Shown one piece after another: positions 7,076-48,829 of a DNA stretch of 64,000 nt. Numbering within the stretch: the first letter of the stretch is position 1; every line of letters begins with the position of its first letter. The translations under genes and the position numbers were made by a program. The notes under the pieces were generated by a model. The model saw only the letters and a list, made by a program, of their open reading frames with translations. It ran no database searches and was not told the origin of the DNA. Origin of the DNA: an uncultured Crocinitomix sp. (GTDB lineage Bacteria; Bacteroidota; Bacteroidia; Flavobacteriales_D; Crocinitomicaceae); the NCBI GenBank assembly GCA_937136425.1, contig CAKZON010000083.1, positions 120-64,119 of the forward strand, written 5' to 3'.

Positions 7076-7966
7076 ATGAAGAATATAACAGTTATTGGAG
7101 CAGGTACTATGGGAAATGGTATTGCTCATGTTTTTGCTCAAAACGGATATGCCGTAACACTTGTAGATATTTCTCAAGCGGCTATTGATAAAGCAATTGC
7201 TAAAATTGGTAAAAATTTGGACCGAATGGTTGCCAAAGAAAAAATTACTGATGCGGATAAAGCTGCAACTTTAGCTAATATTGGATCAAGTACTGACTTA
7301 AAGACGGGAGTTGCCAATGCTGACTTAGTTGTTGAAGCTGCGACTGAAAATGTTGATCTTAAATTGAAAATTTTCAGAGATATTGATGCTAACACAAGTG
7401 ATGATTGCATTTTAGCAACAAACACTTCATCAATTTCTATTACTAAAATTGCTGCAGTTACTTCAAAACCAGACAAAGTAATTGGAATGCACTTTATGAA
7501 TCCGGTTCCAATCATGAAATTGGTTGAAATTATTAGAGGATACTCTACATCTGACGAAGTGACAAACATTATTATGGAAACTTCTAAGTCATTAAAAAAG
7601 GTGCCTGTTGAAGTAAATGATTATCCTGGTTTCGTCGCTAATCGTATTTTAATGCCAATGATTAATGAGGCTATTATTACCTTAAACGAAGGTGTTGCTG
7701 GTGTTGAAGAAATTGACACGGTAATGAAACTTGGTATGGCTCACCCAATGGGACCATTACAATTAGCTGATTTCATTGGTTTAGACGTTTGTTTAGCAAT
7801 TATGAATGTATTGTATGATGGTTTAGGAAATGATAAATATGCACCTTGTCCGTTATTGGTAAACATGGTTACTGCAGGTAAACTTGGAATTAAATCAGGT
7901 GAAGGTTTTTATAGCTGGGGACATGGAACAAAGGATTTAATTGTTGCAGATAACTTTAAGAAATAA
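7076..7966 (+). CDS. hbd: 3-hydroxybutyryl-CoA dehydrogenase
   Basis: Rossmann motif VIGAGTMGNGIA at the N-terminus. Typical 3HCDH N- and C-domain blocks (HFMNPVPIMKLVEIIRG, GFVANRIL, MGPLQLADFIGLD). Length 296 aa. Confidence 0.9.
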   Translation: MKNITVIGAGTMGNGIAHVFAQNGYAVTLVDISQAAIDKAIAKIGKNLDRMVAKEKITDADKAATLANIGSSTDLKTGVANADLVVEAATENVDLKLKIFRDIDANTSDDCILATNTSSISITKIAAVTSKPDKVIGMHFMNPVPIMKLVEIIRGYSTSDEVTNIIMETSKSLKKVPVEVNDYPGFVANRILMPMINEAIITLNEGVAGVEEIDTVMKLGMAHPMGPLQLADFIGLDVCLAIMNVLYDGLGNDKYAPCPLLVNMVTAGKLGIKSGEGFYSWGHGTKDLIVADNFKK

Positions 7967-8014: not shown

Positions 8015-8046
8015 AGGCCGCTCTAGTAAATTGGGCGGCTTTTTTA
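8015..8046 (+). terminator. rho-independent terminator after hbd
   Basis: 7-bp GC-rich stem (AGGCCGC / GCGGCTT) followed by TTTTT. Confidence 0.5.
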
Positions 8047-27538: not shown

Positions 27539-27681
27539 AATGTAAAAAGATTATGTGTGGTTGAATCTATTTGGGATAGAACGACAACATTTACATTATA
27601 GAAACGCATTAAGAATTGAATTCGTTGCGTAAACAACAAAATAATTTACAATTAAATAATAAGAAAGACTGTTAGTCGAAA

Positions 27682-29811: not shown

Positions 29812-29925
29812 TTCGTCTAAAATTAAACAAAAACCGCAACAAGCAATTCAAATATAACGGAATCCCTCTTCTGAAAATGAATCAAAATAGGATTCCAAAA
29901 TTAACTATTTAGCACTACAGTCTTT

Positions 29926-32415: not shown

Positions 32416-32531
32416 AACGTAGGTTTTGTATTCTTGCAGAGCTCATTAACAAAACGAACTCTCTAATACTAACGCACCTAACTTACCCTCAGTTGCTTTA
32501 ATAAGAAGAAAATATTGAATCGATTTATAGC

Positions 32532-32567
32532 AAAAAAAAATAGCCCGATTAAAACCGGGCTATTTTT
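32532..32567. terminator. bidirectional rho-independent terminator
   Basis: A9 - TAGCCCG/CGGGCTA stem - T5. It serves the minus-strand gene ending at 32588. Confidence 0.65.
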
Positions 32568-32587
32568 ACTATTAATTTTTGATTGTT

Positions 32588-35500
32588 TTATTTTAACACG
32601 GTAACATGACCATGATATTCTAATTTCTTGTCAGATGTAACTTCCTGCGTATTAATGTGCCATACATAAACACCGCTAGGAACTAATTCTCCTCCATATG
32701 TTCCATTCCAACCTACTGTTACATCATGGGAAACAAACATTATTTCTCCCCAACGGTTAAATACTGTCAATGTATAATCATAAATATCTATTCCGTTAAA
32801 ATATGGTGTAAATACTTCATTATACAAATCGCCATCAGGAGTAATTGTGTTTGGAACGTAAATTAATAACTGTTCTGAGATAACTATTGTTTGAGAAGTA
32901 CTGTCAACACAACCATAACTATTTTCAACAACAAGATCAACAATATAATTCCCTGGAATTTCTGGGAAGAAGAAAGAAGGATCTTGGTCGTTTGAGTTAC
33001 CTAACTCATCAAATGTCCAAGTCCAAGCATCTGCTCCTGTGGACATATCAGTAAAGTTAATTTCAGTATTAATGGTAGTAGCTGGTTGTGGTCCAAATCT
33101 GAACACAGCATTCGGTTGTGGGTAAACATCTATATAATCATAGAAAGTTGAAGTACTTGAACACCCATTCACATCTGTAATAGTATAACTTACATCATAT
33201 TCACCAGCGTTGTCATATGTATGGGTCACTGATCCACAGAAAGTAGAACTTGTTCCATCACCAAAGTCCCAATAACACTCAGCCCCATCATCTCCAGTAT
33301 TCGTAAATGGCACTACAAGGTCTTCACAACCAGAATTAACGGCTGTCATGAAAGAAACAACTGGCAATGGATTCACTACAACGTCTAAAGTTGCGACATC
33401 TCCACACCCTAACGAAATTGTATTTGTAATTGTATGAGTTCCGACACCAGCCAGAGCAGGGTCAAACATTCCAGCTGTAACACCAGTTCCTGTATACTCT
33501 CCTCCTGGAGAAGCAGCAGTTAAAACAACCGCAGCATCATTTACACAAAATGGACCAATTGGTGTAATTGTAGCATCTGCAGGCACAACACCATCAATCA
33601 CGGTAACTGTATTGGTATATTGACAACCATTTGCATCAGTAACGCAAATATCATAATCACCTGCACAAAGACCAGCGTATGAACCTACTCCATCAGTTGT
33701 TGCGCAATCATCTATACTAAATGTGTAAGGCGCTACTCCATCAGAAGCATCTAAATCAATAGAACCTAAACAATCACCTAAACAAGTTTCACCAACAACA
33801 ATTTCGTCAACCGCAACTGGAATTGGATGACCAACAACTACATCCAGTGTTGTTTCACATCCATTTGCATCCCTTACAGTAATAGTATATGTCCCCTCAG
33901 TTAACCCACTAAAAGTTGGAGCTCCACCAAACGCACCACCGTCAATTGAATATTCTAAGGCTCCTGTTCCGCCTCCACCAATTACTTCTAACGATCCATC
34001 AGATCCTTCAAAGCAAGTAGCATCAATTGTACCTACTAAATCTAATGTTAATGCTGGTGGTTCTGTAATGTCAATAGTAAGCATACTTAGACACCCATTA
34101 TAATCTCTTATCTCAACATCATATGAACCAGCAGTTAAACCGGTAAAAGTAGCGTCAGCGCCAAATGCACCTCCATCAATTGAATATTCATATGGTACAA
34201 CTCCACCAATGCCTTCAACTGTTAGTTCGCCATCATCACCTCCATTACAAGAAACCTCTACAGTACTTACCAATGTCAATTCTAATAATTCTGGTGATAC
34301 AATATCTAATGGAATATCAAGCGTACACCCATTTTCATCCATAATAGTTACAATATATGAACCTGGTGCTAAATCTGTAAACTCTCCTGTAGGCATTGGT
34401 CCATCACCAATATCATACGTCAACACTCCCGTACCACCTTCACCGACAATAGTTCCTGAACCGTCTGTTAAACCAAAGCATGACACTAAGTTAACTACAG
34501 TTACCATTCCGGTTATTTCTTCAGGCTCTAATACTTCAACCTCTCCCGTTTCTACACATCCTAATGCATCTGTCACTGTTACTTCATATACTCCCGCACA
34601 CAAACCAACTGCTGTTGCCGTAGTTTGCGAAAGTGGATCATCCCATGAATAAGTAAATGGAGCAACACCAATTGCATCCGCAGTTGCAGTACCATCACAA
34701 CCACCAAAACAAGACACATCTGTATGAGACATTGTAGGAGGTTCACAACATATTTGATCTATAAAAATTTCATCTTCTGCAACAATACCGCTACAAGAAA
34801 TTAATTTCGCAGTATAAGTCGTAGCTGTAACCGGACAAACGGTTATTTCAGCTCCTTCTCCTATAAATAAAGGCCCAACGTACCATTCAATTATTGGATC
34901 ACCTAAAGGTGTATAACGAATTGCATGATTGGACGCCGTCCAAACCGTGTTATTTCTTCCAGGGAAAACCACAGCATCTGTACCAGTAGCGTTATGCACA
35001 CCTTGCACCGCACGGCCACCTGCCCAACCCGGACAAGTTAATTTTGTCTGAATGTGATTTTCAATAACATTTGTTGTTTCGAAAAGAATAATTTGTTGTG
35101 TATTATATGTTCCTGTACAAGAGAAAAACGAAACCGCCTCCCAAGAAACAACTAATCTTCTAAAAGGCGCAACTCCCAAAACTTCATACTGTATTGTCCC
35201 TGCAATACTTGGATTCAAATCTTGCCAAGGTCCCATTACACAATTCTTAGGTACTGAAGCAACAACCGAAGGAATCGCTGCAGGAGACCAAGTTCCTGGC
35301 CCGCCAGAAAATCCTAACCAACCGTTAGAACTGATATAAAAGTTACTATATGTTTCTCCGTAAAAACAAAAATCAAAGCCAATTCCAATTGCACCTGTTG
35401 TAGCGTCATCAGATAAAACTCTAACCGTACCTCCATAAGGTTCGGCTGCATAAGGTATAGCAGCAACAGTATAATCGGTAGTATTTCCTCCTCCTGTGTA

Positions 35501-35629
35501 TATTGCTTCGAGATCTACACATCCTGGTGAACAAGTAACGGTATCAGGTCCTGCGTCAATTGTAGCGTCTTGAGAGAAACCTACAAAAGCGGTGAGAAAA
35601 AGGGTAGTTATTAGTAAACGCGTTTTCAT
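32588..35629 (-). CDS. adhesin-like protein: NIDO-like N-domain, about 7 SprB repeats, PKD-like domains, type-B T9SS C-terminal domain
   Basis: Start at MKTRLLITTLFLTAFVGFSQ. N-domain with GFDFCFYGETYSNFYISSNGWLGF, paralogous to 27682..29811. C-terminus VPNTITPDGDLYNEVF...NRWGEIMF...GHVTVLK. Confidence 0.85.
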   Translation of the reverse strand: MKTRLLITTLFLTAFVGFSQDATIDAGPDTVTCSPGCVDLEAIYTGGGNTTDYTVAAIPYAAEPYGGTVRVLSDDATTGAIGIGFDFCFYGETYSNFYISSNGWLGFSGGPGTWSPAAIPSVVASVPKNCVMGPWQDLNPSIAGTIQYEVLGVAPFRRLVVSWEAVSFFSCTGTYNTQQIILFETTNVIENHIQTKLTCPGWAGGRAVQGVHNATGTDAVVFPGRNNTVWTASNHAIRYTPLGDPIIEWYVGPLFIGEGAEITVCPVTATTYTAKLISCSGIVAEDEIFIDQICCEPPTMSHTDVSCFGGCDGTATADAIGVAPFTYSWDDPLSQTTATAVGLCAGVYEVTVTDALGCVETGEVEVLEPEEITGMVTVVNLVSCFGLTDGSGTIVGEGGTGVLTYDIGDGPMPTGEFTDLAPGSYIVTIMDENGCTLDIPLDIVSPELLELTLVSTVEVSCNGGDDGELTVEGIGGVVPYEYSIDGGAFGADATFTGLTAGSYDVEIRDYNGCLSMLTIDITEPPALTLDLVGTIDATCFEGSDGSLEVIGGGGTGALEYSIDGGAFGGAPTFSGLTEGTYTITVRDANGCETTLDVVVGHPIPVAVDEIVVGETCLGDCLGSIDLDASDGVAPYTFSIDDCATTDGVGSYAGLCAGDYDICVTDANGCQYTNTVTVIDGVVPADATITPIGPFCVNDAAVVLTAASPGGEYTGTGVTAGMFDPALAGVGTHTITNTISLGCGDVATLDVVVNPLPVVSFMTAVNSGCEDLVVPFTNTGDDGAECYWDFGDGTSSTFCGSVTHTYDNAGEYDVSYTITDVNGCSSTSTFYDYIDVYPQPNAVFRFGPQPATTINTEINFTDMSTGADAWTWTFDELGNSNDQDPSFFFPEIPGNYIVDLVVENSYGCVDSTSQTIVISEQLLIYVPNTITPDGDLYNEVFTPYFNGIDIYDYTLTVFNRWGEIMFVSHDVTVGWNGTYGGELVPSGVYVWHINTQEVTSDKKLEYHGHVTVLK

Positions 35630-35727
35630 ATTAGTCAGATGATTGGTACTAAGGTAACGCAAATTTAACACAAGGGATGCCTCATTGTTAAAAAAAAACA
35701 ATAACTAAATTGGATAACTATCCAATA

Positions 35728-36645
35728 TTACCCAATTGAATAATTGGTGTTTAAAACGTTTGATGTGTATAAATCAGGATTTCCATTTTTATCAAAATAG
35801 AAGTCAATCCGACCAAGAATAAGGCCCGCCCAACCGACTTGATTTATTAGCACGGCTTTTCCATTTTTATTTTCATGCATTTCCGCTTGCTTTAAAAAAG
35901 TGTGGGAATGCCCTCCAATAATTAAATCAATATTTGTTGTTTCTTTTGCTAAAACAGGATCGCACATTTTATTCAGTTTGGATTTATATCCTAAATGTGA
36001 AAGACATATTACCAAATTGCATTTATGCTCCTGTTTTAGTTCATCTGCAATTTTCTGAGCCTTTTCAATTGGATCTAAATATTGAGTTGCTCGATAAAGC
36101 TCAGGACTAACCAATCCCTCCAACTCTACTCCAATTCCAAATACTCCTACTTTTATTCCTCCTTTTTTAAAAATTTTGTAGGGTTTTGTTTTTCCATTTA
36201 AAATGGTATCCTCAAAATTATAGTTGGCACATAAAAAAGGAAAATTGGCATTCGGTAACATTTTATCAAACCCTTCTATTCCAGCATCAAAATCATGATT
36301 CCCCATTGTTGCGGCATCATACCCCATTTCAGACATGAGTTTAAATTCTAATTCGCCACCGTGAATATTAAAGTATGGGGTCCCTTGAAATATATCTCCC
36401 GCATCTAACAGCAATACCTCTTGCTCATCCTCTCTAATTAAGTCAATCAATTTTTTACGTCTACCTGCACCACCTTGTCCAGGATACTTACTGTGATTTT
36501 GAGGAAAAGGATCAATATGAGAATGGGTATCATTAGTATGCAAAATGGTCACTTTCTTTCTATTATCAACCCAACTAGCAGAACTAAGTGCGAATGCCGC
36601 GACTCCTCCAGTTGTAATACTTCTAAGAAAACCTCTTCTTTCCAT
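35728..36645 (-). CDS. Tat-exported metallophosphoesterase (N-terminal half of UshA-type 5'-nucleotidase)
   Basis: Twin-arginine signal MERRGFLRSITTGGVAAFALSSA. Metallophosphatase motifs HTNDTHSH, DAGDIFQG, GNHDFD, GGHSH. Confidence 0.85.
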   Translation of the reverse strand: MERRGFLRSITTGGVAAFALSSASWVDNRKKVTILHTNDTHSHIDPFPQNHSKYPGQGGAGRRKKLIDLIREDEQEVLLLDAGDIFQGTPYFNIHGGELEFKLMSEMGYDAATMGNHDFDAGIEGFDKMLPNANFPFLCANYNFEDTILNGKTKPYKIFKKGGIKVGVFGIGVELEGLVSPELYRATQYLDPIEKAQKIADELKQEHKCNLVICLSHLGYKSKLNKMCDPVLAKETTNIDLIIGGHSHTFLKQAEMHENKNGKAVLINQVGWAGLILGRIDFYFDKNGNPDLYTSNVLNTNYSIG

Positions 36646-37382
36646 TACTTACTAATTTTCATCCTACGGTCAATCCCAACATTCTTAATTACGCCCTTTT
36701 CTTTAATGTATTCAATAAAAACATCTCGCATTAAAATGCCCGAGTCCCATTTTTCAGTAGCATCTTTTAGAAAGTTCATTTTATCTCCTCCTGAAGCCAA
36801 ATAATTGGACGTTATAACATAAAGCTCTGTTTTCTCTTTTGGTAAATTTTCAAGTGTGAAATTTTTATAATCAGCACCTAAATCAAAAGTTGCATTACTT
36901 ACAGGTTGTCCATTCATTAAATAGAGATAATCCAGCAAAGCATCAACACCATCTAAATCAAGCTTAACAATGGTTATTGTATTATCAAACGGCATAAATT
37001 CAAACACGTTTCCAATTGTTATATCTCCTTGATTAATTGGTGCACGCAAACCTCCAAAATTTAGCAAGGCAATTGAATTGTTTACTTTAAAATCATTAAA
37101 ACCTGGTGGGGCTAATGTTATTCCTTTTTCAAAAATAGCATCAGCAGCAAAATTCCCTAATGGAGATTCTGGCGCATACTTTATTAATGTTGAATCACAA
37201 ACACCTATAACTGCACTCATTTGAGCATCCACCTCACTTCTATATGGGGCAATAATACTTTCTAAGTCATTTGAGTTATAGGTAGAATCTAAACCTACAT
37301 TTTCTGCTGTGTATGATTCATAGGTTGAATGTGAACATCCAACTAATATAAACACAAGAGCTATTGCACAAAACTGTTTCAC
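36645..37382 (-). CDS. 5'-nucleotidase C-terminal (substrate-binding) domain lipoprotein
   Basis: Lipobox LVGCSHS. 5_nucleotid_C-like blocks (ESPLGNFAADA, GGLRAPI, NYLASGGD). The stop overlaps the next gene start as TAATG. Confidence 0.8.
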   Translation of the reverse strand: MKQFCAIALVFILVGCSHSTYESYTAENVGLDSTYNSNDLESIIAPYRSEVDAQMSAVIGVCDSTLIKYAPESPLGNFAADAIFEKGITLAPPGFNDFKVNNSIALLNFGGLRAPINQGDITIGNVFEFMPFDNTITIVKLDLDGVDALLDYLYLMNGQPVSNATFDLGADYKNFTLENLPKEKTELYVITSNYLASGGDKMNFLKDATEKWDSGILMRDVFIEYIKEKGVIKNVGIDRRMKISK

Positions 37383-37386
37383 TTAT

Positions 37387-38439
37387 TTACTTCACTTCTT
37401 TTTTAAGCACTAAGAAAACTGGAAAATGGTCAGAATACCCGTTTAGATATTTACCACCAGCATGTGTCCGTTTAGGATACCCTTTATAATTACCATCTTT
37501 TTGCTTCAAATATTCCTTACTGTAAACATATGATTTATGAAAAATATAACTTGAAGCGTCTTGAGAAGTCAGCCCTTCACTAATAATTAATTGATCAAAT
37601 AAATTCCAAGCATCTCGATAAGCCAAGGTGCAATCACCCTGCTTAAATTTAGAGTACATAGTATTATACATGTCCCCCTTTTTCATTTTTGCAATTTTTG
37701 ATTTTGCTCTAATATAATTTTTAACGCTCTTATTAATAGGATCATCATTTAAATCTCCCATTAAGATAATTTTAGCATTTGCATCTGCAACAAGTAATGA
37801 ATCAATAATCTTACGTCCTAATATCGCAGCATCAATTCTTCTAGGTTGTGATTTTTCCATTCCACCACTACGAGAAGGCCAGTGCGCAACTATAATATGC
37901 ACTTTATCTCCATCCAATTCACCTGAGACTACTAATTGATCTCTTGTTTTATAGTCAGGGTCGCTTTCAAATTTAAGTTCGTGCGATACACTATTAGTTG
38001 GTTTAAAGTATTTTTCTTGATATAATAGGCCAACATCAATTCCACGGCGATCAGGAGAATCAAAGTGAATGATTTTATAATCACGGTCTTTTATTTCTTC
38101 TTCTGCCACAAGATCTTCCAACACTTTTTTGTTTTCAACCTCACAAACACCTAATACAGCACAGCCGTCTGGTGACACAGAAGTACCTAGGTCAGCAATT
38201 ACATGTGCCATGTTTGTTAACTTGTTTTGGTATTTCTCTTCTCCCCATGTATATCTGCCATCTAAGGTAAAGTCTTCATCTCTAATCGCTGGATCATCCT
38301 CTGTATCAAAAAGGTTTTCAAGGTTATAAAAGCCTATGCATGCTACTTTGTAGGCTTTATTTGTCTGGCTATGTCCAACTATTGAAACACCAAGCATTAC
38401 AATTACTAGCATTCCAATATTGATTCCTATTTTTCTCAT
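37387..38439 (-). CDS. secreted endonuclease/exonuclease/phosphatase (EEP) family protein
   Basis: Signal peptide. EEP blocks FYNLENLFD, GVCEVEN, AHWPSR, MGDLND, YSDHFPV. It resembles the catalytic domain of ExeM/NucH-type extracellular nucleases. Confidence 0.8.
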   Translation of the reverse strand: MRKIGINIGMLVIVMLGVSIVGHSQTNKAYKVACIGFYNLENLFDTEDDPAIRDEDFTLDGRYTWGEEKYQNKLTNMAHVIADLGTSVSPDGCAVLGVCEVENKKVLEDLVAEEEIKDRDYKIIHFDSPDRRGIDVGLLYQEKYFKPTNSVSHELKFESDPDYKTRDQLVVSGELDGDKVHIIVAHWPSRSGGMEKSQPRRIDAAILGRKIIDSLLVADANAKIILMGDLNDDPINKSVKNYIRAKSKIAKMKKGDMYNTMYSKFKQGDCTLAYRDAWNLFDQLIISEGLTSQDASSYIFHKSYVYSKEYLKQKDGNYKGYPKRTHAGGKYLNGYSDHFPVFLVLKKEVK

Positions 38440-38464
38440 TTATTCTATTCTTTTTTAGGATTGT

Positions 38465-38472
38465 CAAATTTA
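38465..38472 (-). promoter_or_regulatory. candidate -7 box TAAATTTG for the EEP/5'-nucleotidase operon
   Basis: The reverse complement of CAAATTTA matches TAnnTTTG. It lies 26 nt upstream of the start at 38439. Confidence 0.35.
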
Positions 38473-38580
38473 ACTATTATAATCAAATACCAGACCAAGG
38501 AAACGTGCATGTAATGTTAACAAACAATTAAGTTATTCACAATTAATCAAATTATGGTGTTTCGCCCGTGTTTTATTTCG

Positions 38581-38588
38581 TAAATTTG
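38581..38588 (+). promoter_or_regulatory. candidate -7 box TAAATTTG for the TonB-dependent receptor operon
   Basis: Exact TAnnTTTG match 52 nt upstream of the start at 38640. It is the same octamer as the divergent box. Confidence 0.35.
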
Positions 38589-38639
38589 TCCAGCTTTTTA
38601 TATTCATGCATAACAAAAGCTTAATTTAGCATCACAAAA

Positions 38640-41162
38640 ATGATAAAGAAAATTGGAATTCTAATTTCACTATCTCTCTTTGCAATCAACGGAATTTCGC
38701 AAAGCACAGAGACAGAGCAAGAAGATACACTTCTTACAAACACCCCTGTTTTCATCACCAATTTAGAAGATGGTGAAAACAGTAGCGGTAGTTCAGGAAA
38801 CATCTCAGGATTATTGCAATCCTCTCGTGACGTTTTTGCAGCAACAGCAGGTTTTAACTTTAGTGCAGCCCGTTTTAAAATTCGTGGTTACCAGTCTGAC
38901 AAAACAATGATTTTGTTAAATGGTATTCCAATGAATGATTTAGAAACGGGAAGAGGCACCTGGTATAGATGGGGAGGATTAAATGATGTAACTCGTTATT
39001 CTGAGACAAAAAACTGGCTTTCAGACAATCCTTATCATTTTGGAGGAATTGGCGGTTACTCTAACATTAACTCTAAAGCAACAGGCATTAGAAAAGGATC
39101 TAGAGTTTCTTACGCATCTACCAACAGAGCTTATTCTCACCGTTTAATGTATACGCACGGAACGGGAATGCAAAAAAATGGTTGGGCATTTGCAGCATCA
39201 TTATCTGCCAGATATGCAAACGAAGGATATGTAGACGGAACTTTTTACGAAGCTTTTAGTTATTTTTTAGCCGCCGAGAAGAATATTAATAAAAGTCACA
39301 ACCTTAACCTTACTATTTTAGGTTCTCCTTCTCGCAGAGGAAAAGGAAGTATTTCAACGCTTGAAACCTATGAATTATCTGGAAACAACTTCTATAATTC
39401 TTATTGGGGATACCAAACCCAACCTGATGGAACGCGAATTAAAAGGAATTCAAGAGTTGCAGATTCGCACATGCCAATCATTGCTTTTTCTCATGAATGG
39501 AAAATAAACGACATCTCATCATTAAAAACATCTCTTCATTCTAGTTTTGGAAAATATGGGCAAACAGCTTTAAACTGGTATGACGCTAAAGATCCGCGAC
39601 CAGATTATTACAAATACCTTCCTTCATATTACGAAGGCATCAATGATCCTACAAATGCGCAGCGCATGTTAAACAACTGGCAAAACGAATCCGCTCGCCA
39701 AGTGCAATGGGACGATTTATATTTTGCCAACAGCAAAAACTTATACACACACAAAGACGCAAACGGAAACATTTTGCGTGAAGGTTTACGCTCAAAATAC
39801 ATTGTAGAAAACAGATGGAATAATATTGTATCTGGTGGTTTATCATCTTTATATACTGTAGAGAAAGAAAACATGACCATGAATGCAGGACTATTTATTC
39901 AAGCACAGCGTAATCACTATTATAACACTGTTGAGGATTTATTAGGTGGTGATTATTGGGTTGATGTAAACCAATTTGCAGAGCAAGATTTTATTGACCC
40001 TAATGCAGCACAAAGTGATTTGCAAAACCCTAATAGAACTGTTGGCGTTGGAGACACTTATGGTAATAACTATTACATCATGAATGTTAATGCCACAGCA
40101 TTTTGGCAAATCAACTACCGCACAAAAAGAGTTGATTATTATGGTGCATTAGAATTAACAGATGAGCAATTTTATAGAGAAGGGTTATTCCAGACAGGTT
40201 TATTCCCTGACAACTCGCTAGGAAAATCTGAAACAAAAAACTTTGTAAACTACGCTATTAAAGGTGGTGCAACTTATAAAATTTCAGGAAGACAATATAT
40301 TACTGCTAATGCAGCATACCTTACAGAAGCTCCAACTTCAAGATCGGCATTTATTTCACCAAGAACGAGAAACGTAACTGTTGATGACCTTAAAAACGAA
40401 ACAATTTACACAGGAGACATTAACTATATTTTACGCTACCCTAATTTAAAGATGCGTTTAACTTACTACTACTCTGAACGTAAAGACGCAGTTTGGTCAA
40501 GAAGTTTTTATCATGATGAATACAATTCATTTGTAAACTATGTAATGCAAGACGTTGATTACTTCCACCAAGGAATAGAATTAGGAGTAGATGGTAAAAT
40601 TCATGGAGGGCTTTCTGGAAACTTAGTAGTTGCCATGGGACAACACCTTTACAACTCTCGTCCAACAGCATCAATTTATGTAGACAACTCTGCAGAATTA
40701 ATTGCAGAAGACAAAACAGTTTATTTACAGAACTATAAAATTGGAGGAATGCCGCAATCTGCAGCATCAGTAGGATTAAAATATAGTGGTAAAAAATATT
40801 GGTTTGCAGGTGTTAACTTCAACTACTTTGCAGATATTTATTTAGATCCAAACCCAGACAGAAGAACGGCTGAAGCTGTTGCAAACTTTGTAGAATCAGA
40901 TCCACAGTTTACACAAACTATTGAGCAAACTAAGTTAGATAATGGATATTCAATGAGTTTATTTGCTGGTAAATCATTTAAAATATCCAACTACTTCCTA
41001 AATATCAACGTGAATATTAATAACCTCACAAACAATACACAATTTGTGACGGGTGGATTTGAGCAATTGCGTTTTGATTCGCAAAAAATTGACAAGTTTC
41101 CACCACGTTTAGGATACATGTACGGATTGAATTACTTTTTAATGGCCACTTTACGTTTTTAA
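38640..41162 (+). CDS. TonB-dependent outer-membrane receptor (not obviously SusC-type; no SusD partner)
   Basis: Signal peptide, plug-domain block RGYQSDKTMILLNGIPMNDLETG, long beta-barrel region, terminal ...ATLRF. Confidence 0.85.
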   Translation: MIKKIGILISLSLFAINGISQSTETEQEDTLLTNTPVFITNLEDGENSSGSSGNISGLLQSSRDVFAATAGFNFSAARFKIRGYQSDKTMILLNGIPMNDLETGRGTWYRWGGLNDVTRYSETKNWLSDNPYHFGGIGGYSNINSKATGIRKGSRVSYASTNRAYSHRLMYTHGTGMQKNGWAFAASLSARYANEGYVDGTFYEAFSYFLAAEKNINKSHNLNLTILGSPSRRGKGSISTLETYELSGNNFYNSYWGYQTQPDGTRIKRNSRVADSHMPIIAFSHEWKINDISSLKTSLHSSFGKYGQTALNWYDAKDPRPDYYKYLPSYYEGINDPTNAQRMLNNWQNESARQVQWDDLYFANSKNLYTHKDANGNILREGLRSKYIVENRWNNIVSGGLSSLYTVEKENMTMNAGLFIQAQRNHYYNTVEDLLGGDYWVDVNQFAEQDFIDPNAAQSDLQNPNRTVGVGDTYGNNYYIMNVNATAFWQINYRTKRVDYYGALELTDEQFYREGLFQTGLFPDNSLGKSETKNFVNYAIKGGATYKISGRQYITANAAYLTEAPTSRSAFISPRTRNVTVDDLKNETIYTGDINYILRYPNLKMRLTYYYSERKDAVWSRSFYHDEYNSFVNYVMQDVDYFHQGIELGVDGKIHGGLSGNLVVAMGQHLYNSRPTASIYVDNSAELIAEDKTVYLQNYKIGGMPQSAASVGLKYSGKKYWFAGVNFNYFADIYLDPNPDRRTAEAVANFVESDPQFTQTIEQTKLDNGYSMSLFAGKSFKISNYFLNINVNINNLTNNTQFVTGGFEQLRFDSQKIDKFPPRLGYMYGLNYFLMATLRF

Positions 41163-41173
41163 AAGCATTTAAA

Positions 41174-42445
41174 ATGAGAAAAAGAATTAACGCAATATTA
41201 TTAGGAGTTTTCGCTATTAGTGCAGTTACGGCTTGTAAAAAAGAACCGGACTCTCCACCAATCAATTCAATTACTGATAGCGAAATCATTACGATTGATA
41301 GCTTAAAAGCTTGGCAACGCTCTGTCAATGATGCTATTTTAATTACTGACACAATTTCTGTTTATGGAATTGTAACTATGGATGAAGGAAATGGGAATAT
41401 TTATAAAAATATTTATTTCCAAGATCATACTGGAGCAATCAATGTGCGCTTTACAAGTGGTACAGATTTAGTGCAGGGAGATTCTATTCGAATTGCATTA
41501 AACGGAGTAACCTTAAACAACTTTAATGGTGTTTATCAATTGGACAATGTTGAGGAAGAAACAAATGTCGTTGTACAATCATCAGGGAATGATTTGGAGC
41601 CACTAACATTGACTATTGATCAAGTTCAAACAGCGTATACTGCCTTTTTAACAGATGACGAGATTGTTGAATTTAAGTATCAATCCATGCTAATGCGTTT
41701 TGCGGATGTTCAATTTAAAACATCTGAATTATTAAACACTTATGCTGATCCAGTGAACCAAAGTTCAGAGAACAGGTTGTTTGAAGACTTTGACGGTTAT
41801 ACTAGCTTTATTAGAACAAGCGGCTTTGCAGCATTTGCTGGAGACAGCTTACCAAAGGGTGCTGGATCAATGGTTTGTATTATAAGCGAGTATAATGAAG
41901 AAATTCAATATATACTTAGATCACCTGAAGAAGCTGATATGCATGGGCCACGTGGACCAGGAGAGTTATTAGTAAAAGATTTCAATGACGAAGACATTAA
42001 CTCTGGTGGTTGGCTAGTACAACAAGTAATTGGAACTGATGCTTGGGAAATTGGTGACTTAGGAAGTTGGGAAGACCGTCCTTATGCTGTAATTTCAAAT
42101 TATGATGACGGAAATTCAGCTTGTGAAAGTTGGCTTATCTCCCCTAGTCTAGATTTAAGCGGATCAACAGACGCTTCACTTTCTTTTGACAATGCATATA
42201 ACTACAGTGGTGATCCCCTAGAATTATTAATCTCTATAGATTATGCAGGAACGGGAGATCCAAATGCAGCAACATGGGTGCCATTAACTGCAACTTGGTC
42301 TACAGGAGGATTTGCTTTTGTAAATTCAGGAAGCATTGATTTAGCAGCTTATTTAACAAGTAATGTTCGCATTGCATTTAAATATGTTGGAACTGAAAGT
42401 AGCGGTAGAACTTGGGAAATTGACAATATTATTATTAACGGTTAA
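41174..42445 (+). CDS. surface lipoprotein with OB-fold-like module and C-terminal jelly-roll (DUF5689 / choice-of-anchor-J-like)
   Basis: Lipobox VTACKKE. Module VYGIVTMDEGNGNIYKNIYFQDHTGAINVRF...GDSIRIALNGVTLNNFNGVYQL. C-terminal WLISPSLDL...RIAFKYVG...RTWEIDNIII. Confidence 0.7.
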   Translation: MRKRINAILLGVFAISAVTACKKEPDSPPINSITDSEIITIDSLKAWQRSVNDAILITDTISVYGIVTMDEGNGNIYKNIYFQDHTGAINVRFTSGTDLVQGDSIRIALNGVTLNNFNGVYQLDNVEEETNVVVQSSGNDLEPLTLTIDQVQTAYTAFLTDDEIVEFKYQSMLMRFADVQFKTSELLNTYADPVNQSSENRLFEDFDGYTSFIRTSGFAAFAGDSLPKGAGSMVCIISEYNEEIQYILRSPEEADMHGPRGPGELLVKDFNDEDINSGGWLVQQVIGTDAWEIGDLGSWEDRPYAVISNYDDGNSACESWLISPSLDLSGSTDASLSFDNAYNYSGDPLELLISIDYAGTGDPNAATWVPLTATWSTGGFAFVNSGSIDLAAYLTSNVRIAFKYVGTESSGRTWEIDNIIING

Positions 42446-42449
42446 GAAA

Positions 42450-43691
42450 ATGAAAAGATTTATTCAAAAAAGTACGTTCGTTTTTATGCTTGGAGCACTT
42501 GCGCTCTCTTCATGCAAAAAAGAATATGACACTCCACCGTTAGAAGATATTCCAGAAACGGCTGTAATGACAATTGACGAATTACGTACATGGCAGGCAA
42601 CAGAAGGAGGCGTTATCTCTATTCAAAACGAGCTTTCAGTATATGGAATTATTACCATGGATGAAAGTGATGGGAATGTTTATAAAAATGTTTACATGCA
42701 AGACCATACTGGTGCAGTAAATGTAAGAATGCTAAATGGCGGAGGTGTTTATCAAGGTGATTCTGTTCGAATATACCTGAAAGGAACTATCCTTAGTCAG
42801 TACAATGGTGTTTTACAAATTGATTCGGTGGATGTTGACAAGAATATTATTAAGCAATCAACGAATAACAACTTTGCACCAGAAACGATCTCAATTGATT
42901 TAATTACTTCTTTAAAAGAATCAGAATTGATTCAAATTAATGATGTACAATTTATCAAACCTGAGGTTGGGCAAACATTTGCGGATGGTGAAGAATTAGT
43001 ATCACTAGATCGTATTTTAGAAGATGTAGATGGAAATACGATCAAAGTAAGAACTAGCGGTTACGCAGCATTTGCTGATGAAATAATTCCAGCAGGATCA
43101 GGAAGTATTGTTTGTATAGTAAGTCACTTTAATGGAGAAGTTCAATTATTAATAAGATCATTTAGTGAAATAGCTATGAACAATGACCGCTTTAGTGGAT
43201 TAGTTGCTGCTAAAGATTTTGATGATGGAGAAATCAACTCTAATGGATGGACAACATACCAAGTAGCGGGACCAGAAGTAGAATGGGAAACGAGCAGTGC
43301 TGGTGGCGCACCAAATGATTATGGAGTAATCTCTAATTATATTGATGGCTCAAACATTGCTACCGAAAATTGGTTAATCTCCCCTTCTATTGACCTTTCT
43401 GAGGCAGCAAGTCCTTATTTAAATTTTGATAATGCATGCAGCTATGACGGAGCGCTAATAGAAATTCTTGTATCTACAGATTATGATGGTACAAGTAATC
43501 CAAACGAACAAGGTTCTTGGACAAACATTGGAGGATTAGCAACGCTTTCAACTGGATTTTTCACTTGGGTAAACTCGACTAATGTACCAATTGGAACATT
43601 AGGAGAAAACGTGCATATTGCATTCAAGTATACTGGTTCAGTTTCTGACGGAAGAACTTGGGAATTAGATAACATTTTAATACACGAATAA
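42450..43691 (+). CDS. paralogous surface lipoprotein (OB-fold-like module + C-terminal jelly-roll)
   Basis: Start at MKRFIQKSTFVFMLGALALSSCKKE. Colinear with 41174..42445 (VYGIITMDESDGNVYKNVYMQDHTGAVNVRM; WLISPSIDL; HIAFKYTG; RTWELDNILI). Confidence 0.7.
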   Translation: MKRFIQKSTFVFMLGALALSSCKKEYDTPPLEDIPETAVMTIDELRTWQATEGGVISIQNELSVYGIITMDESDGNVYKNVYMQDHTGAVNVRMLNGGGVYQGDSVRIYLKGTILSQYNGVLQIDSVDVDKNIIKQSTNNNFAPETISIDLITSLKESELIQINDVQFIKPEVGQTFADGEELVSLDRILEDVDGNTIKVRTSGYAAFADEIIPAGSGSIVCIVSHFNGEVQLLIRSFSEIAMNNDRFSGLVAAKDFDDGEINSNGWTTYQVAGPEVEWETSSAGGAPNDYGVISNYIDGSNIATENWLISPSIDLSEAASPYLNFDNACSYDGALIEILVSTDYDGTSNPNEQGSWTNIGGLATLSTGFFTWVNSTNVPIGTLGENVHIAFKYTGSVSDGRTWELDNILIHE

Positions 43692-43756
43692 AAATCTTTC
43701 CTGTTTTGAAATGGGAATTATAAATAAGCTAAAACAAAAAAAACAAACAATTGATT

Positions 43757-45106
43757 ATGACTAAATTATTTACTTTATTATTGTCTATAACGCTGGGAGC
43801 GGCGAGTTTTGGACAAGTAATTTTCGAGAGTGATTTAAGCTCTTGGACAGATACAGATCCTGATGGATGGATGGGTTCTAAAACCAATATTGGTTCAGAA
43901 AACGTAGTAGAGCAAACTATTGGAGCAATGCACGGAACTGCAATGGCACAATTATTCAACGCTACTGGAAGTCACAAACGTTTCACTACAGAAGAAATGC
44001 CAGTGACTGAATTAGAAACTTATGAAATTAAATTATGGTTAACAGGTATGGAAGGCTCTATGCTTCGTACAGGGTACTATAACACTACTGCTGATGGTTG
44101 GTATTATAACGACTATATTGATGTATTTGCTGAAACTGGTGGAGATTTAACTATGTTAAGCCAAACAGTAACTATTCCAAGTGGATGTACTGATGCTGAA
44201 TTCATTTTATCATTACATAGTACTGATGAATTGGTAGGAATCGTAATTGATTCAGTAGCTATTACAATTGGTGAGCCAGAAGAGTCTGAAGAGGTTTCTA
44301 TTTATGACATTCAATATTCAGAAGATGCTGATTTCATTTCTCCATATGCTGACGAATTAGTAACTACAAGTGGAATTGTTACAGGTGTTTTCCTTTTTGG
44401 AGCAGCTGAAGGAACTTTCTTTATTCAAGATGGTGAAGGTGCATGGAATGGAATTTATGTATACGAACCAGGAACAGAAGTTGCACTTGGTGATAGTGTA
44501 GTAGTAACTGGTGAAGTTACTGAATACTTTACTTTAACTGAAATCGTTTCTGTAGTTACAGTAAACGTTATAAGTTCAGGACACCCAATGCCAAATGCTG
44601 TAGCTGTTGCAACTAGTGATGTGGTAAATGAAGAATACGAAGGCGTATTAGTTCGATTAGAAGATGCAAAATGTACAAATCCTGATGCTGGTTTTGGACA
44701 ATTTGAAGTAGATGACAATTCAGGTGTACGTTTAGTTGATGACGAAATGTTTAGCTACACGCCTGCATTAAACAACTATTATAACATTACAGGTGTTTCA
44801 TTCCTATCTTTTGGTGAAACTAAAGTTTACCCAAGAATGCTTTCTGATATTGAAGTAACAGGATATGCTGGAATCGAAGAAAATGAAAACGGTTTCAACC
44901 TATACCCTAACCCAGCAACTGAAATGATTACATTAAATGTTAATGCAACTGCATTAGTAAACATTTATAGTGTTGATGGTGCTTTAGTTTACTCGGCTAA
45001 TGGAAACGTAAACACAATTGATGTATCTTCATTTGATACTGGTGTTTACCAAGTTGTAGTAACAGAAAATGCAACAACAATGACTGAGCGTTTAATCGTT
45101 AGATAG
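43757..45106 (+). CDS. T9SS-secreted protein with OB-fold-like module and type-A C-terminal sorting domain
   Basis: Signal peptide MTKLFTLLLSITLGAASFGQ. Module TSGIVTGVFLFGAAEGTFFIQDGEGAWNGIYVY...GDSVVVTGEVTEYFTLTEI. C-terminus LYPNPATEMITLNV...GVYQVVVTENATTMTERLIVR. Confidence 0.75.
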   Translation: MTKLFTLLLSITLGAASFGQVIFESDLSSWTDTDPDGWMGSKTNIGSENVVEQTIGAMHGTAMAQLFNATGSHKRFTTEEMPVTELETYEIKLWLTGMEGSMLRTGYYNTTADGWYYNDYIDVFAETGGDLTMLSQTVTIPSGCTDAEFILSLHSTDELVGIVIDSVAITIGEPEESEEVSIYDIQYSEDADFISPYADELVTTSGIVTGVFLFGAAEGTFFIQDGEGAWNGIYVYEPGTEVALGDSVVVTGEVTEYFTLTEIVSVVTVNVISSGHPMPNAVAVATSDVVNEEYEGVLVRLEDAKCTNPDAGFGQFEVDDNSGVRLVDDEMFSYTPALNNYYNITGVSFLSFGETKVYPRMLSDIEVTGYAGIEENENGFNLYPNPATEMITLNVNATALVNIYSVDGALVYSANGNVNTIDVSSFDTGVYQVVVTENATTMTERLIVR

Positions 45107-45199
45107 TCAATTAATAAATATTAAAAAAGGGGATTAACCAATGGTTAACCCCCTTTTTCTTGTCCTTAATTTTGATATAAATGAAGGCGATTGCTATTA

Positions 45200-47133: not shown

Positions 47134-48648
47134 TTATTCCGCGTCTAACTCCTGACGAATACGCTGGCTTAATTGACGATTATATGTCTCTTTTAACCAA
47201 TTTAAATAACTGTCAGTCGCTTTGGTAATACATTTTGTATAATGCTTTAATCTGCGCTCAATATCATCTTGCAACTCTTCTAACAGCATTAAGCCGTCAT
47301 ACATGTCCTCAGAATTTTCCGCCACAACTTCAAAGTGATTATCTAAAGAAATATCAACAGCTTCTTTTCCTTTTTTACCAGCATCAATACAATCGTCATA
47401 AACCTTTTTCATTGAAAACTCTTCCAATAAACCTGGAGACTTCAATTTATCTTTAAGGTTACGCGGCAATTCATATGCTGCTTCAAACATCATATCATCC
47501 TCTTCACTCAATCGCGCTTCTAAGAAACGATCTGGATAATTGAAGGCATCTTGCCAATCGATATATTCTTGCCAGTATCCAAAACGGCGAACGTTATTTC
47601 CAAGATCAATCACTTGGAAAGAGCTCTTATTCTCTAATTTACGAGAACCACGCCCAATCATTTGGTGATAAAGGGTTAATGAACGTGTTGCACGATTCAA
47701 AATAATTGTTTCAACCGTAGGCTCATCAAAACCAGTAGTTAAAATTCCGACAGACGTTAATACTGCACCCGGCGTTTCTTTAAACCACTTTAATATGTCT
47801 TTTCGTTCTGTATCACCAAACGTACTATCTAAGTGACGCACTTTATAGTTGTGCTTTTTAAATAGTTCATAAACAGATCGAGACGATTCAATTCCACTAT
47901 TAAAAATAAGTGTCTTTCTTTTTAGTGCAACTTCTTCATAAGCAAAAAGTAATTTTTCTTGCATGAAATAGTTACTGTACACTTTATCAGAAGAACTTAC
48001 TGTAAAATCTCCATTTACACCAATCTTTAAACCATGAAGGTTTACATCATAGGTATAGGTTTCAGCATTTGACAAATACTGCTTCTCAATTAAAGACTTA
48101 ATACTTTCTCCAACAATTAGCTTATCATAATTGTCTTTTAATGGTAATGTTTTATTAGAACTTAGCGGCGTTGCTGTAACTCCTAATATGTTAACATCTT
48201 GAAAGTATTGAAATATTTTACGGAATGAATTGTTGTGTGCCTCATCAACAATTACAAGCCCAATATTTTTTATAAACTCTTTATCGTCTTGCAAACGATT
48301 ATTTAAAGTTTCCACCATTGCGGTGAAAGAATCAAACTGAGACTGATCGTCTAAAGTCTTCACTAAACTATTCACTACTTTGTTCTCAATTCCTAATGCA
48401 GTAAGTTGCTTAGAAGTTTGAACACATAGCTCAATTCTGTGTGTAAGAATTAAAACTTTTCTTTTTGTCTTTTGAATATATTCTCTTGCAATATTTGAAA
48501 AGATAACCGTTTTACCTCCACCAGTAGGCAATTGAAAGAGTAAATTAAAGTTTTGACCCTCGTCTTTCAGCTCCTTAATTATCTGATTAACAATGTTTTT
48601 CTGGAACGGATAGAGTTCTTTTTTCTTGAAGAGGCTTTTGTCAATCAT
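47134..48648 (-). CDS. SF2 DEAD/DEAH-box helicase family protein with C-terminal extension
   Basis: Motif I LPTGGGKT, motif II VDEAH, motif III VTATP, motif VI HQMIGRGSR. Start is taken at MIDKSLFKKKELYPFQ. Confidence 0.8.
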   Translation of the reverse strand: MIDKSLFKKKELYPFQKNIVNQIIKELKDEGQNFNLLFQLPTGGGKTVIFSNIAREYIQKTKRKVLILTHRIELCVQTSKQLTALGIENKVVNSLVKTLDDQSQFDSFTAMVETLNNRLQDDKEFIKNIGLVIVDEAHNNSFRKIFQYFQDVNILGVTATPLSSNKTLPLKDNYDKLIVGESIKSLIEKQYLSNAETYTYDVNLHGLKIGVNGDFTVSSSDKVYSNYFMQEKLLFAYEEVALKRKTLIFNSGIESSRSVYELFKKHNYKVRHLDSTFGDTERKDILKWFKETPGAVLTSVGILTTGFDEPTVETIILNRATRSLTLYHQMIGRGSRKLENKSSFQVIDLGNNVRRFGYWQEYIDWQDAFNYPDRFLEARLSEEDDMMFEAAYELPRNLKDKLKSPGLLEEFSMKKVYDDCIDAGKKGKEAVDISLDNHFEVVAENSEDMYDGLMLLEELQDDIERRLKHYTKCITKATDSYLNWLKETYNRQLSQRIRQELDAE

Positions 48649-48829
48649 ATCAATTTTGTGGCATTTTGAGCGGTGCAAAAATAGCACCTTTTAATTGAAA
48701 ATAAAAATTCTGAGGCATCTATTATTGAAATGCCAAGAAATAATGATTTTTCAAGTTTCATGCCAATTGTATCTAAAAAAAATTGAATCGTATTATCTTT
48801 GTTCTTTTAGAAACGACAAACGAATTAAA

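Follow-up and report, generated by a model that had tools for sequence, protein, structure and literature searches.

The locus at positions 35728-45106 of a 64-kb stretch of DNA from an uncultured Crocinitomix sp. (contig CAKZON010000083.1, assembly GCA_937136425.1; the whole stretch is called "the window" below) has its closest described relatives in two outer-membrane systems linked to DNA. The first, ddbABCDEF of Bacteroides thetaiotaomicron, was described by Sharan et al. (PNAS 2025), in whose work deletion of the locus abolished both DNA depletion and nucleobase production (PMC12478041). Three of its products act as nucleases in vitro: DdbA and DdbF, which have signal peptidase II (SPII) signals, and DdbB (WP_008767132.1), which has a signal peptidase I (SPI) signal; DdbC is a TonB-dependent transporter (TBDT), which the DUF5689 protein DdbD (WP_048698952.1), structurally similar to the HIN domain of p202, is predicted to cap or to complex; and DdbE (WP_146072611.1) is an SPII protein of unknown domain (PMC12478041). 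The same operon, as BT3560-3563, was found by Béchon et al. (2022) through the bile-dependent biofilm phenotype of the DNase BT3563, with BT3560 as its TonB-dependent receptor (TBDR) (PMC8851478). The second system belongs to Riemerella anatipestifer, where transposon mutagenesis showed RA0C_RS04915 and RA0C_RS04920 to be essential for natural transformation (Huang et al. 2021); the former is an outer-membrane protein with CarboxypepD_reg, and the latter carries DUF5689 together with DUF5017 / choice-of-anchor J (PMC8459023). This locus, with its neighboring ddbB-like nuclease, lies at NC_017045:1014432..1020133, and tonBA is likewise required for Riemerella transformation (Zhang et al. 2021, PMC8383284). 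Sharan et al. pointed out that ddbBCD is homologous to the Riemerella locus and that the system follows a logic like that of polysaccharide utilization loci (PULs); secreted nucleases are missing from the Riemerella locus and from the ddb subtype Pv2 (PMC12478041), as they are from the locus described here.

We conclude, with a probability of roughly 70%, that the Crocinitomix locus is a ddb-type DNA utilization system, homologous to the outer-membrane module of Riemerella transformation. This placement rests on shared Pfam and NCBIfam models, architecture, synteny, and a Bacteroides intermediary. A previous interpretation made from the letters of the window (the sequence-only reading) had taken the locus for a PUL-like system in which extracellular nucleic acid is bound, taken up, and broken down, which agrees with the genetics of the homologous loci (PMC12478041, PMC8459023), to which synteny, homology, and fold now assign it. 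It was right in substance, but what it saw is not novel: it had considered the system uncharacterized, although such systems were described in 2021 (Riemerella) and in 2025 (ddb).

Gene content and the transporter

Profile searches and the open-reading-frame list yielded seven open reading frames between 35728 and 45106, at the coordinates named beforehand, and the domains, the export signals, and both −7 boxes are found where the sequence-only reading had placed them. From left to right, the intergenic distances are −1, 4, 200 (the spacer), 11, 4, and 65 nt, so that two tight strings of genes diverge around a 200-nt spacer. The features are listed below, with EEP standing for endonuclease/exonuclease/phosphatase, OB for oligonucleotide/oligosaccharide binding, T9SS for type IX secretion system, and Tat for twin-arginine translocation.

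35728..36645, minus strand: Tat-exported metallophosphoesterase, corresponding to the N-terminal catalytic half of UshA; last gene of the leftward operon
36645..37382, minus strand: 5_nucleotid_C lipoprotein, corresponding to the C-terminal substrate-binding half of UshA; lipobox LVGC
37387..38439, minus strand: EEP-superfamily nuclease (PF19580) carrying an SPI signal and corresponding to DdbB; its gene heads the leftward operon
38440..38639, no strand: divergent promoter region with two −7 boxes and a conserved central block
38640..41162, plus strand: TonB-dependent outer-membrane transporter of 840 aa, probable counterpart of DdbC and RA0C_RS04915
41174..42445, plus strand: lipoprotein DUF5689a, counterpart of DdbD and RA0C_RS04920; tandem OB followed by a choice-of-anchor J β-sandwich
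42450..43691, plus strand: lipoprotein DUF5689b, paralogue of DUF5689a
43757..45106, plus strand: T9SS-secreted protein; CBM/MAM-like β-sandwich, YhcR/ExeM-type tandem OB, type A sorting domain
45123..45159, no strand (reported on the minus strand): G+C-rich hairpin with a 17-bp stem, flanked by A and T runs

At first sight, this layout is that of a SusCD-type PUL, with which it shares a transporter gene adjoining that of one or more surface lipoproteins, accessory surface binders, periplasmic hydrolases, and a single promoter region. However, SusCD-type PULs have a SusD/RagB protein, carbohydrate-active enzymes (CAZymes), and a SusC-type N-terminal (CarboxypepD_reg) extension, all three of which are absent here, and the lipoprotein partner is here a tandem OB and β-sandwich protein. 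Profile searches found no match to SusD/RagB, glycoside hydrolases, or lyases in the seven proteins or their neighbors, which bears out the earlier observation that the transporter has no SusD-like partner. Neither did Pfam and NCBIfam profiles reveal a lipoprotein or T9SS nuclease between 35728 and 45106.

For comparison, the window proteins were mapped on 20 genome loci, labeled L001 onward, with L001 being a Crocinitomix metagenome-assembled genome (MAG) that is 98% identical to the window at the protein level; the Bacteroides, Cytophagales, and Prevotella relatives are annotated records from a plasmid collection. The transporter itself gives a marginal Plug match at aa 39-105, with 24.4 bits where the cut-off is 23.9. 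Its orthologue in L019 (42% identical) matches CarboxypepD_reg, Plug, and TonB_dep_Rec_b-barrel, and the Bacteroides and Flammeovirga orthologues (35-39% identical) are annotated as TonB-dependent receptors. Identity to the TBDR of Bacteroides finegoldii amounts to 35.2% over 795 aa (E = 1e-149), to those of Aureibacter and Flammeovirga to 41% and 38.5%, to that of Prevotella to 30%, and to those of Phocaeicola and Persicobacter to about 25%. Homology to DdbC (WP_008762511.1) and RA0C_RS04915 is indirect, by way of the B. finegoldii TBDR, and a PDB sequence search with the transporter returned no relative. The B. finegoldii, Aureibacter, and Flammeovirga TBDRs align to the window transporter from about their residues 104-124. 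The homologues of 906-928 aa from Bacteroides, Aureibacter, Flammeovirga, and L019 have an N-terminal CarboxypepD_reg extension, which the window transporter lacks, as do the related Flavobacteriales proteins of 844-859 aa and the 846-aa homologue from Prevotella. Assignment to one of the ddb subtypes Bt1, Bt2, Pv1, and Pv2 calls for >50% identity to a reference DdbC at a coverage of >75%; at 35% identity to the Bacteroides TBDR and approximately 25% to that of Phocaeicola, membership in a named ddb subtype is very unlikely.

Conservation of the nuclease, transporter, and DUF5689 core

The nuclease matches Exo_endo_phos_3 (PF19580) over its full length (Pfam, E = 1e-128), carries an ordinary SPI signal, and is predicted to be periplasmic. 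Again over the full length, it is 46.7% identical to the EEP protein encoded at the TBDR-DUF5689-EEP locus of B. finegoldii, and identity to an Aureibacter EEP protein is 48.7%; a PDB sequence search with it gave no match. From the EEP label in Fig. 5 of PMC8851478, we infer that DdbB is itself a member of PF19580.

Whether the gene neighborhood is conserved had been left as a check by the sequence-only reading, and the EEP/TBDR/DUF5689 core proves to be kept across Flavobacteriales, Cytophagales, and Bacteroides. An EEP gene divergent from genes for a TBDR, one or two DUF5689 proteins, and a T9SS OB protein is shared by Crocinitomicaceae, Vicingaceae, Parvicellaceae, and further Flavobacteriales, with identities falling as low as 42% for the TBDR and 28% for the lipoprotein; the trio of PF19580-EEP, TBDR, and DUF5689 is retained in 14 related Flavobacteriales loci, and a 4.7-Mb contig of another lineage has PF19580 divergent from a TBDR that is followed by DUF5689. 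Crocinitomix catalasitica and C. algicola carry the locus as well. Gene order varies further afield, from TBDR-DUF5689-EEP in B. finegoldii to TBDR-DUF5689-DUF5689-endonuclease-EEP-EEP in Aureibacter and EEP-EEP-TBDR-DUF6359-endonuclease in Flammeovirga, with full-length identities between the window and these three of 41-49% for EEP and 35-41% for TBDR. In every related locus with enough flanking sequence, an EEP gene lies beside the transporter gene, and this conserved synteny argues that the two operons are not neighbors by chance. The additional nucleases differ from locus to locus (a T9SS PF03372 EEP protein, a T9SS Endonuclease_1 protein with fn3, genes annotated as "endonuclease"). Since nucleases are what is exchanged around a constant core, the common theme is nucleic acid.

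The accessory proteins themselves vary in make-up. At L019 2571-5950, on the minus strand, a T9SS Endonuclease_1 + fn3 protein is encoded beside the PF19580 gene, as is a second T9SS protein, which contains Calx-beta and is matched directly by DUF5689. Evidently, exported modules, whether nucleases or binders, can move from lipoproteins to T9SS cargo and back.

The spacer between the operons is conserved as well. The Bacteroidota −7 box TAAATTTG stands at 38465-38472 on the minus strand and again at 38581-38588 on the plus strand. TAnnTTTG is not enriched in the window (87 observed, 97.6 expected), and its count is therefore by itself no proof of promoter boxes. In six Crocinitomicaceae loci, however, both boxes occupy the same positions and the central block is conserved too; the plus-strand box lies 49-57 nt upstream of the transporter ATG in most related loci, distant ones included. 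A scan for σ70 promoters was uninformative (30 matches, 39 expected). Inside the central block, a palindrome, TGTTAACA, is found at 38515-38522; the block that holds it, TGTTAACAAAnnATTAAGTTATnCACAA (38515-38545), lies between the promoters in all six Crocinitomicaceae loci and in none beyond, and the palindrome neither recurs at other promoters in the window nor is kept outside Crocinitomicaceae. Another block, CGAyAGTGTAGGATrG, is shared by the EEP-TBDR spacers of L009, L012, and L013. The TGTTAACA palindrome and the spacer blocks are candidates for clade-specific operator sites. At the other end, the hairpin at 45123-45159 separates the T9SS gene from the gene that converges on it, closing the rightward string, and is the likely terminator and right-hand end of the locus; given the symmetry of its A and T runs, it could act in both directions.

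Within the leftward operon, the two genes that follow the nuclease gene resemble a divided UshA. The metallophosphoesterase (Metallophos, Pfam E = 3e-17) covers UshA positions 30-258 of 550 (NCBIfam, E = 2e-41), starts with the twin-arginine signal MERRGFLRS, and its gene overlaps the upstream one by 1 nt. The product of that upstream gene (5_nucleotid_C, Pfam E = 2e-14) covers UshA positions 347-543 in the NCBIfam model, and no acidic residues follow the Cys of its LVGC lipobox. Both domains of the periplasmic UshA-type 5'-nucleotidase are present in this pair, but on two proteins with export signals of their own (lipoprotein and Tat) and in reversed order, the substrate-binding half being encoded upstream of the catalytic half; with 142 and 45 bits, the two fall far short of the 600 bits at which a UshA equivalog is called. 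Among the 20 loci mapped, the pair is found with the core in Crocinitomix and in a single further genome of Crocinitomicaceae, and nowhere else; the order of nuclease, 5_nucleotid_C, and metallophosphoesterase genes, with its 4-nt gap and 1-nt overlap, is kept in five other Crocinitomicaceae loci. In B. finegoldii, a reversed pair of the same kind, annotated as "5'-nucleotidase" and "metallophosphatase," stands at an unrelated locus beside rplS and a GH3 gene (L029 3950-5592). It looks like a general two-subunit 5'-nucleotidase of Bacteroidota, which is here encoded 4 nt downstream of the nuclease gene. The sequence-only reading had counted the pair among the parts of the system; as its linkage to the core is confined to Crocinitomicaceae and the B. 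finegoldii pair stands at an unrelated locus, it is not a conserved part.

Surface proteins with a shared OB module

The two lipoproteins, 46-47% identical to each other, match DUF5689 (PF18942; E = 7e-39 for DUF5689a and 7e-44 for DUF5689b) and choice_anch_J (E = 6e-20 and 1e-17), have lipoboxes, and show a weak match to DUF5017. NF052645 (lipo_M949_1556) is matched end to end (E = 1e-50 and 6e-46), but the scores of 172.8 and 157.2 bits are far under the curated cut-off of 475 bits, which makes DUF5689a and DUF5689b homologues outside that Riemerella subfamily. Identities to more distant relatives are 24-32%, full-length with DUF5689_1 of Aureibacter and restricted to the OB half with the B. 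finegoldii protein, to which DUF5689b is 32% identical in this half (E = 4e-26). Two DUF5689 copies are found in L002-L009 and L011-L013, and a single copy in L010, L014, L015, L018, L019, and L021. Homology searches with the window lipoprotein and the more Riemerella-like one of L019 returned no named Riemerella or B. thetaiotaomicron entries, a scan of genome contigs with the window lipoprotein returned Flavobacteriales MAGs only, and a PDB sequence search with the DUF5689 profile gave no match. According to Zou (2015), cited in PMC4976936 and PMC12566107, M949_1556 of Riemerella is reported to affect lipopolysaccharide (LPS) antigenicity and virulence. This gene and that of RA0C_RS04920, the lipoprotein required for transformation, are probably of one family, in which case the LPS and virulence phenotypes and a role in DNA uptake would have gone unconnected so far.

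The sequence-only reading had proposed that these lipoproteins and the T9SS protein carry one module, that of the OB-like region of ExeM/NucH nucleases, and predicted structure agrees. In the AlphaFold2 model of DUF5689a (pLDDT 88), two five-stranded barrels precede a β-sandwich. With Foldseek, the N-terminal half matches DNA-binding proteins of tandem-OB or HIN fold (3u58, Teb1 AB, 1e-5; 5z7d, p204 HINab-dsDNA, 1.4e-5; 7yny, LEF-3, 1.9e-5; 4lnq, Ifi202 HINa-dsDNA, 6.5e-5) and the C-terminal half MAM, Eph-LBD, CBM, and gingipain-adhesin sandwiches. Some members of the DUF5689 family have precomputed matches to PF01336 (nucleic-acid-binding OB) and LTD, and one Crocinitomicaceae member is named "OB-fold nucleic acid binding domain-containing protein" at NCBI. 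Together with the folds, the PF01336 matches and the NCBI name indicate that the link to an ExeM/NucH OB region was correct.

The T9SS protein ends in a type A sorting domain (aa 382-449; TIGR04183/PF18962, E = 1.3e-12 and 4.2e-12, above the cut-offs), and its residues 204-303 match positions 1-110 of 546 of ExeM_NucH (E = 7e-12). Like ExeM and NucH, it has the motif region GIVT...FxIQD..GA...GDxV...G.V.EY, and some of its homologues are labeled "predicted extracellular nuclease" or "YhcR" by JGI. In ExeM/NucH and YhcR, however, an EEP or SNase domain is part of the same chain; here the catalytic EEP domain is a separate protein of a different family (PF19580), and the T9SS protein reaches 45 bits against the cut-off of 300 of NF033681 and is without a catalytic nuclease domain. 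Its AlphaFold2 model (pLDDT 88) shows a sandwich, then the two-barrel strand pattern seen in DUF5689a, then the sorting domain. Because the N-terminal β-sandwich dominates the Foldseek list, there is no independent OB match, and the OB nature of this protein rests on profile comparison and on the pattern of secondary structure. Pairwise BLASTP between T9SS protein and lipoprotein is not significant (E = 0.18), whereas profile-profile comparison gives E = 1e-5 over 167 columns and the OB subprofiles alone give E = 1.1e-6 in hhalign (91% probability, 165 columns). On this evidence from remote homology, the proposal of one OB module common to both lipoproteins and the T9SS protein holds. Residues conserved in the modeled proteins include K78, R92, R106, R214, R249, and R260, along with the motifs QD..GA.N and GDS. 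We also considered whether the T9SS protein might be a domain-permuted paralogue of the lipoproteins and rejected the idea, as the lipoprotein C-terminal and the T9SS N-terminal sandwiches show no detectable homology (hhalign E = 0.3).

The gene of the T9SS protein is kept downstream of the lipoprotein genes in most related loci. In three of these (L009 12542-14545, L013 12549-14552, L008 12509-14488), the T9SS protein is about 660 aa long and the OB region of the window protein is matched twice, by which the tandem-OB module is duplicated there; the L009 copy also matches DUF5017. In L001, the closest relative of the window, the T9SS β-propeller gene downstream of the locus gives way to an incomplete duplicate of the N-terminal domain of the T9SS OB protein (7151-7741; 38% identical over residues 1-194).

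Put side by side, ddbABCDEF and the Crocinitomix locus have in common a TBDT directly followed by a DUF5689 lipoprotein with a HIN/OB-like fold, an SPI nuclease alongside, an additional exported nonnuclease protein (DdbE there, the T9SS OB protein here), and a PUL-like organization without SusD. A B. finegoldii locus has the same make-up, at 35% (TBDR), 47% (EEP), and 32% (DUF5689 OB half) identity to the window proteins. On the other hand, the SPII nucleases DdbA and DdbF have no equivalent in Crocinitomix, one DUF5689 protein there corresponds to two here, and the accessory binder is lipid-anchored there and T9SS-exported here; the transporter here is without the N-terminal extension, and the nuclease gene is divergent and in an operon with the 5'-nucleotidase. 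With the Riemerella pair, the locus shares the order Flavobacteriales, a nuclease, a TBDT, a lipoprotein with DUF5689 and DUF5017/choice-of-anchor J, and the lack of a secreted nuclease. RA0C_RS04915 differs from the Crocinitomix transporter in having CarboxypepD_reg, and Crocinitomix has three additions: another lipoprotein, an OB protein exported by the T9SS, and the pair of 5'-nucleotidase genes. Lineage-specific, then, are the second DUF5689 protein, the T9SS OB protein, the lack of a secreted nuclease, the extensionless transporter, and the 5'-nucleotidase that shares an operon with the nuclease; the locus adds family-specific accessories and is no new kind of system.

Proposed function and alternative explanations

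For a DNA utilization system of this kind, we infer the following course of events. Extracellular DNA or its fragments would be captured at the cell surface by the two DUF5689 lipoproteins, with their tandem OB modules, and by the OB protein that the T9SS exports; one of the lipoproteins probably caps the transporter, as SusD caps SusC, and the others would act as auxiliary binders. The TonB-dependent transporter would then import DNA or oligonucleotides into the periplasm, where the SPI-exported PF19580 EEP nuclease may cut the imported material. In Crocinitomicaceae, the two-subunit periplasmic 5'-nucleotidase, co-transcribed with the nuclease, could turn the resulting 5'-nucleotides into nucleosides and phosphate for uptake, which would suit a nutritional purpose.

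Several observations weigh against this scheme. The OB modules carry a strongly negative charge (net −22, −17, and −22), with 5 K+R in the 177 residues of that of the T9SS protein, unlike classical backbone binders of the HIN/RPA type; yet all surface proteins in the window and the Bacteroides homologue are acidic. The TM-scores of the OB matches in Foldseek are low (0.16-0.24), owing to the multidomain nature of the DUF5689a model, and for DdbD, too, the case for DNA binding is one of structural similarity (PMC12478041). The N-termini of the lipoproteins, CKKEPD and CKKEYD, do not strictly fit the surface-export motif C(x/xx)(D/E)(D/E) (PMC12478041). No secreted nuclease is encoded in the Crocinitomix locus, and a ddb subtype without secreted nuclease showed minimal DNA depletion; moreover, DNA is a poor sole C, N, or P source for B. 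thetaiotaomicron (PMC12478041). The 5'-nucleotidase is a general Bacteroidota pair, linked to the core in one family only. The strong acidity of the OB modules and the missing extracellular nuclease leave surface DNA binding, as the sequence-only reading had it, a plausible rather than an established step. The DUF5689 system is not mentioned in a study of phosphate starvation in Flavobacterium (PMC8115612), and no Pho box search was made.

The alternative that survives best is that the core serves natural transformation, carrying long DNA over the outer membrane for recombination after ComEC-dependent uptake, with the nuclease trimming it or making it single-stranded and nutrition being at most a by-product. 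Riemerella, which also belongs to Flavobacteriales, cannot be transformed without RA0C_RS04915 and RA0C_RS04920 (PMC8459023) and needs tonBA for this as well (PMC8383284), and the window lipoproteins have the architecture of RA0C_RS04920 and match lipo_M949_1556 end to end (E = 1e-50). Furthermore, a locus without secreted nuclease, as in Riemerella, would preserve long DNA, which keeps this explanation alive. We nevertheless hold it to be unlikely as the principal role: the nuclease is co-transcribed with an enzyme that destroys nucleotides, which favors nutrition, secreted nucleases are added in sister loci, and no competence genes were found in the 64-kb window. Transformation and nutrition are not mutually exclusive, and both roles may coexist.

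A second alternative would replace DNA with another polymer, for instance a negatively charged glycan, a polysaccharide bearing phosphate, or a molecule resembling teichoic acid, bound by the sandwiches and attacked by the EEP protein as a phosphodiesterase or phosphatase. The CBM/MAM-like β-sandwiches of the lipoproteins and the T9SS protein do dominate the Foldseek matches, there is a weak CBM_4_9 match, the OB modules are acidic, and the EEP superfamily takes in phosphatases and sphingomyelinases. However, CAZymes are absent from all related loci, the accessory enzymes that vary between them are all nucleases (EEP, Endonuclease_1, "endonuclease"), the OB module is that of the ExeM/NucH and YhcR nucleases, and the phenotypes at homologous loci concern DNA (PMC12478041, PMC8459023), all of which makes this explanation very improbable.

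Just as little credit can be given to a main role in remodeling the extracellular DNA of a biofilm or surface matrix, as reported for BT3563, in place of import. Although it was a biofilm phenotype, dependent on bile, that first drew attention to the BT3560-3563 operon (PMC8851478) and the window is rich in T9SS adhesin-like genes, that phenotype is due to a secreted DNase with no counterpart in the Crocinitomix locus, the sole nuclease of which has an SPI signal and is predicted to be periplasmic, and an energized importer is conserved alongside it. Finally, that the two operons are chance neighbors and not one system can practically be dismissed: the 5'-nucleotidase pair, linked to the core within Crocinitomicaceae only and located elsewhere in the B. 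finegoldii genome, might have joined it in this way, but for the EEP/transporter/DUF5689 core the idea is refuted, as judged from gene order, by the adjacency of EEP and transporter genes, which holds for all informative loci whatever their gene order and spans three bacterial orders or more, and by a shared spacer in which both promoter boxes are conserved.

To the left of the locus, at 24959-35701 on the minus strand, four consecutive genes encode large paralogous T9SS proteins with SprB repeats, PKD, and CHU_C sorting domains, at a G+C content of 0.38-0.39 (0.33-0.35 elsewhere). To its right, at 47134-48687 on the minus strand, lies the gene of a ResIII/DEAD-box helicase-like protein that is 91-99% identical among Crocinitomix genomes, compared with 55-90% for its neighbors, and that adjoins the locus within the genus Crocinitomix only. 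A 1420-aa signaling protein with TPR, multiple PAS, GAF, and SpoIIE (PP2C phosphatase) domains, encoded at 8044-12306 on the minus strand, is unrelated to the DNA uptake locus.

It is tempting to speculate further that the nuclease-free T9SS tandem-OB protein is a soluble or surface-tethered "DNA-ophore" which hands DNA to an extensionless transporter capped by two DUF5689 lipoproteins, with long DNA, spared by the lack of a secreted nuclease in the locus, entering intact and serving both phosphorus and nucleoside scavenging and natural transformation. We regard this idea as doubtful; if it were true, competence would be widespread in marine Bacteroidota. For the ddb-type reading preferred here, the setting is that dissolved DNA is a large organic P and N pool in seawater, where Bacteroidota are major consumers of polymers. 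Machinery described from gut ddb systems and from Riemerella would be kept, with accessories of its own, in Crocinitomicaceae and other marine Flavobacteriales. The locus thereby offers a genetic marker for DNA uptake in marine metagenomes and opens a route to asking whether TonB-dependent import of DNA feeds nutrition, gene transfer, or both.

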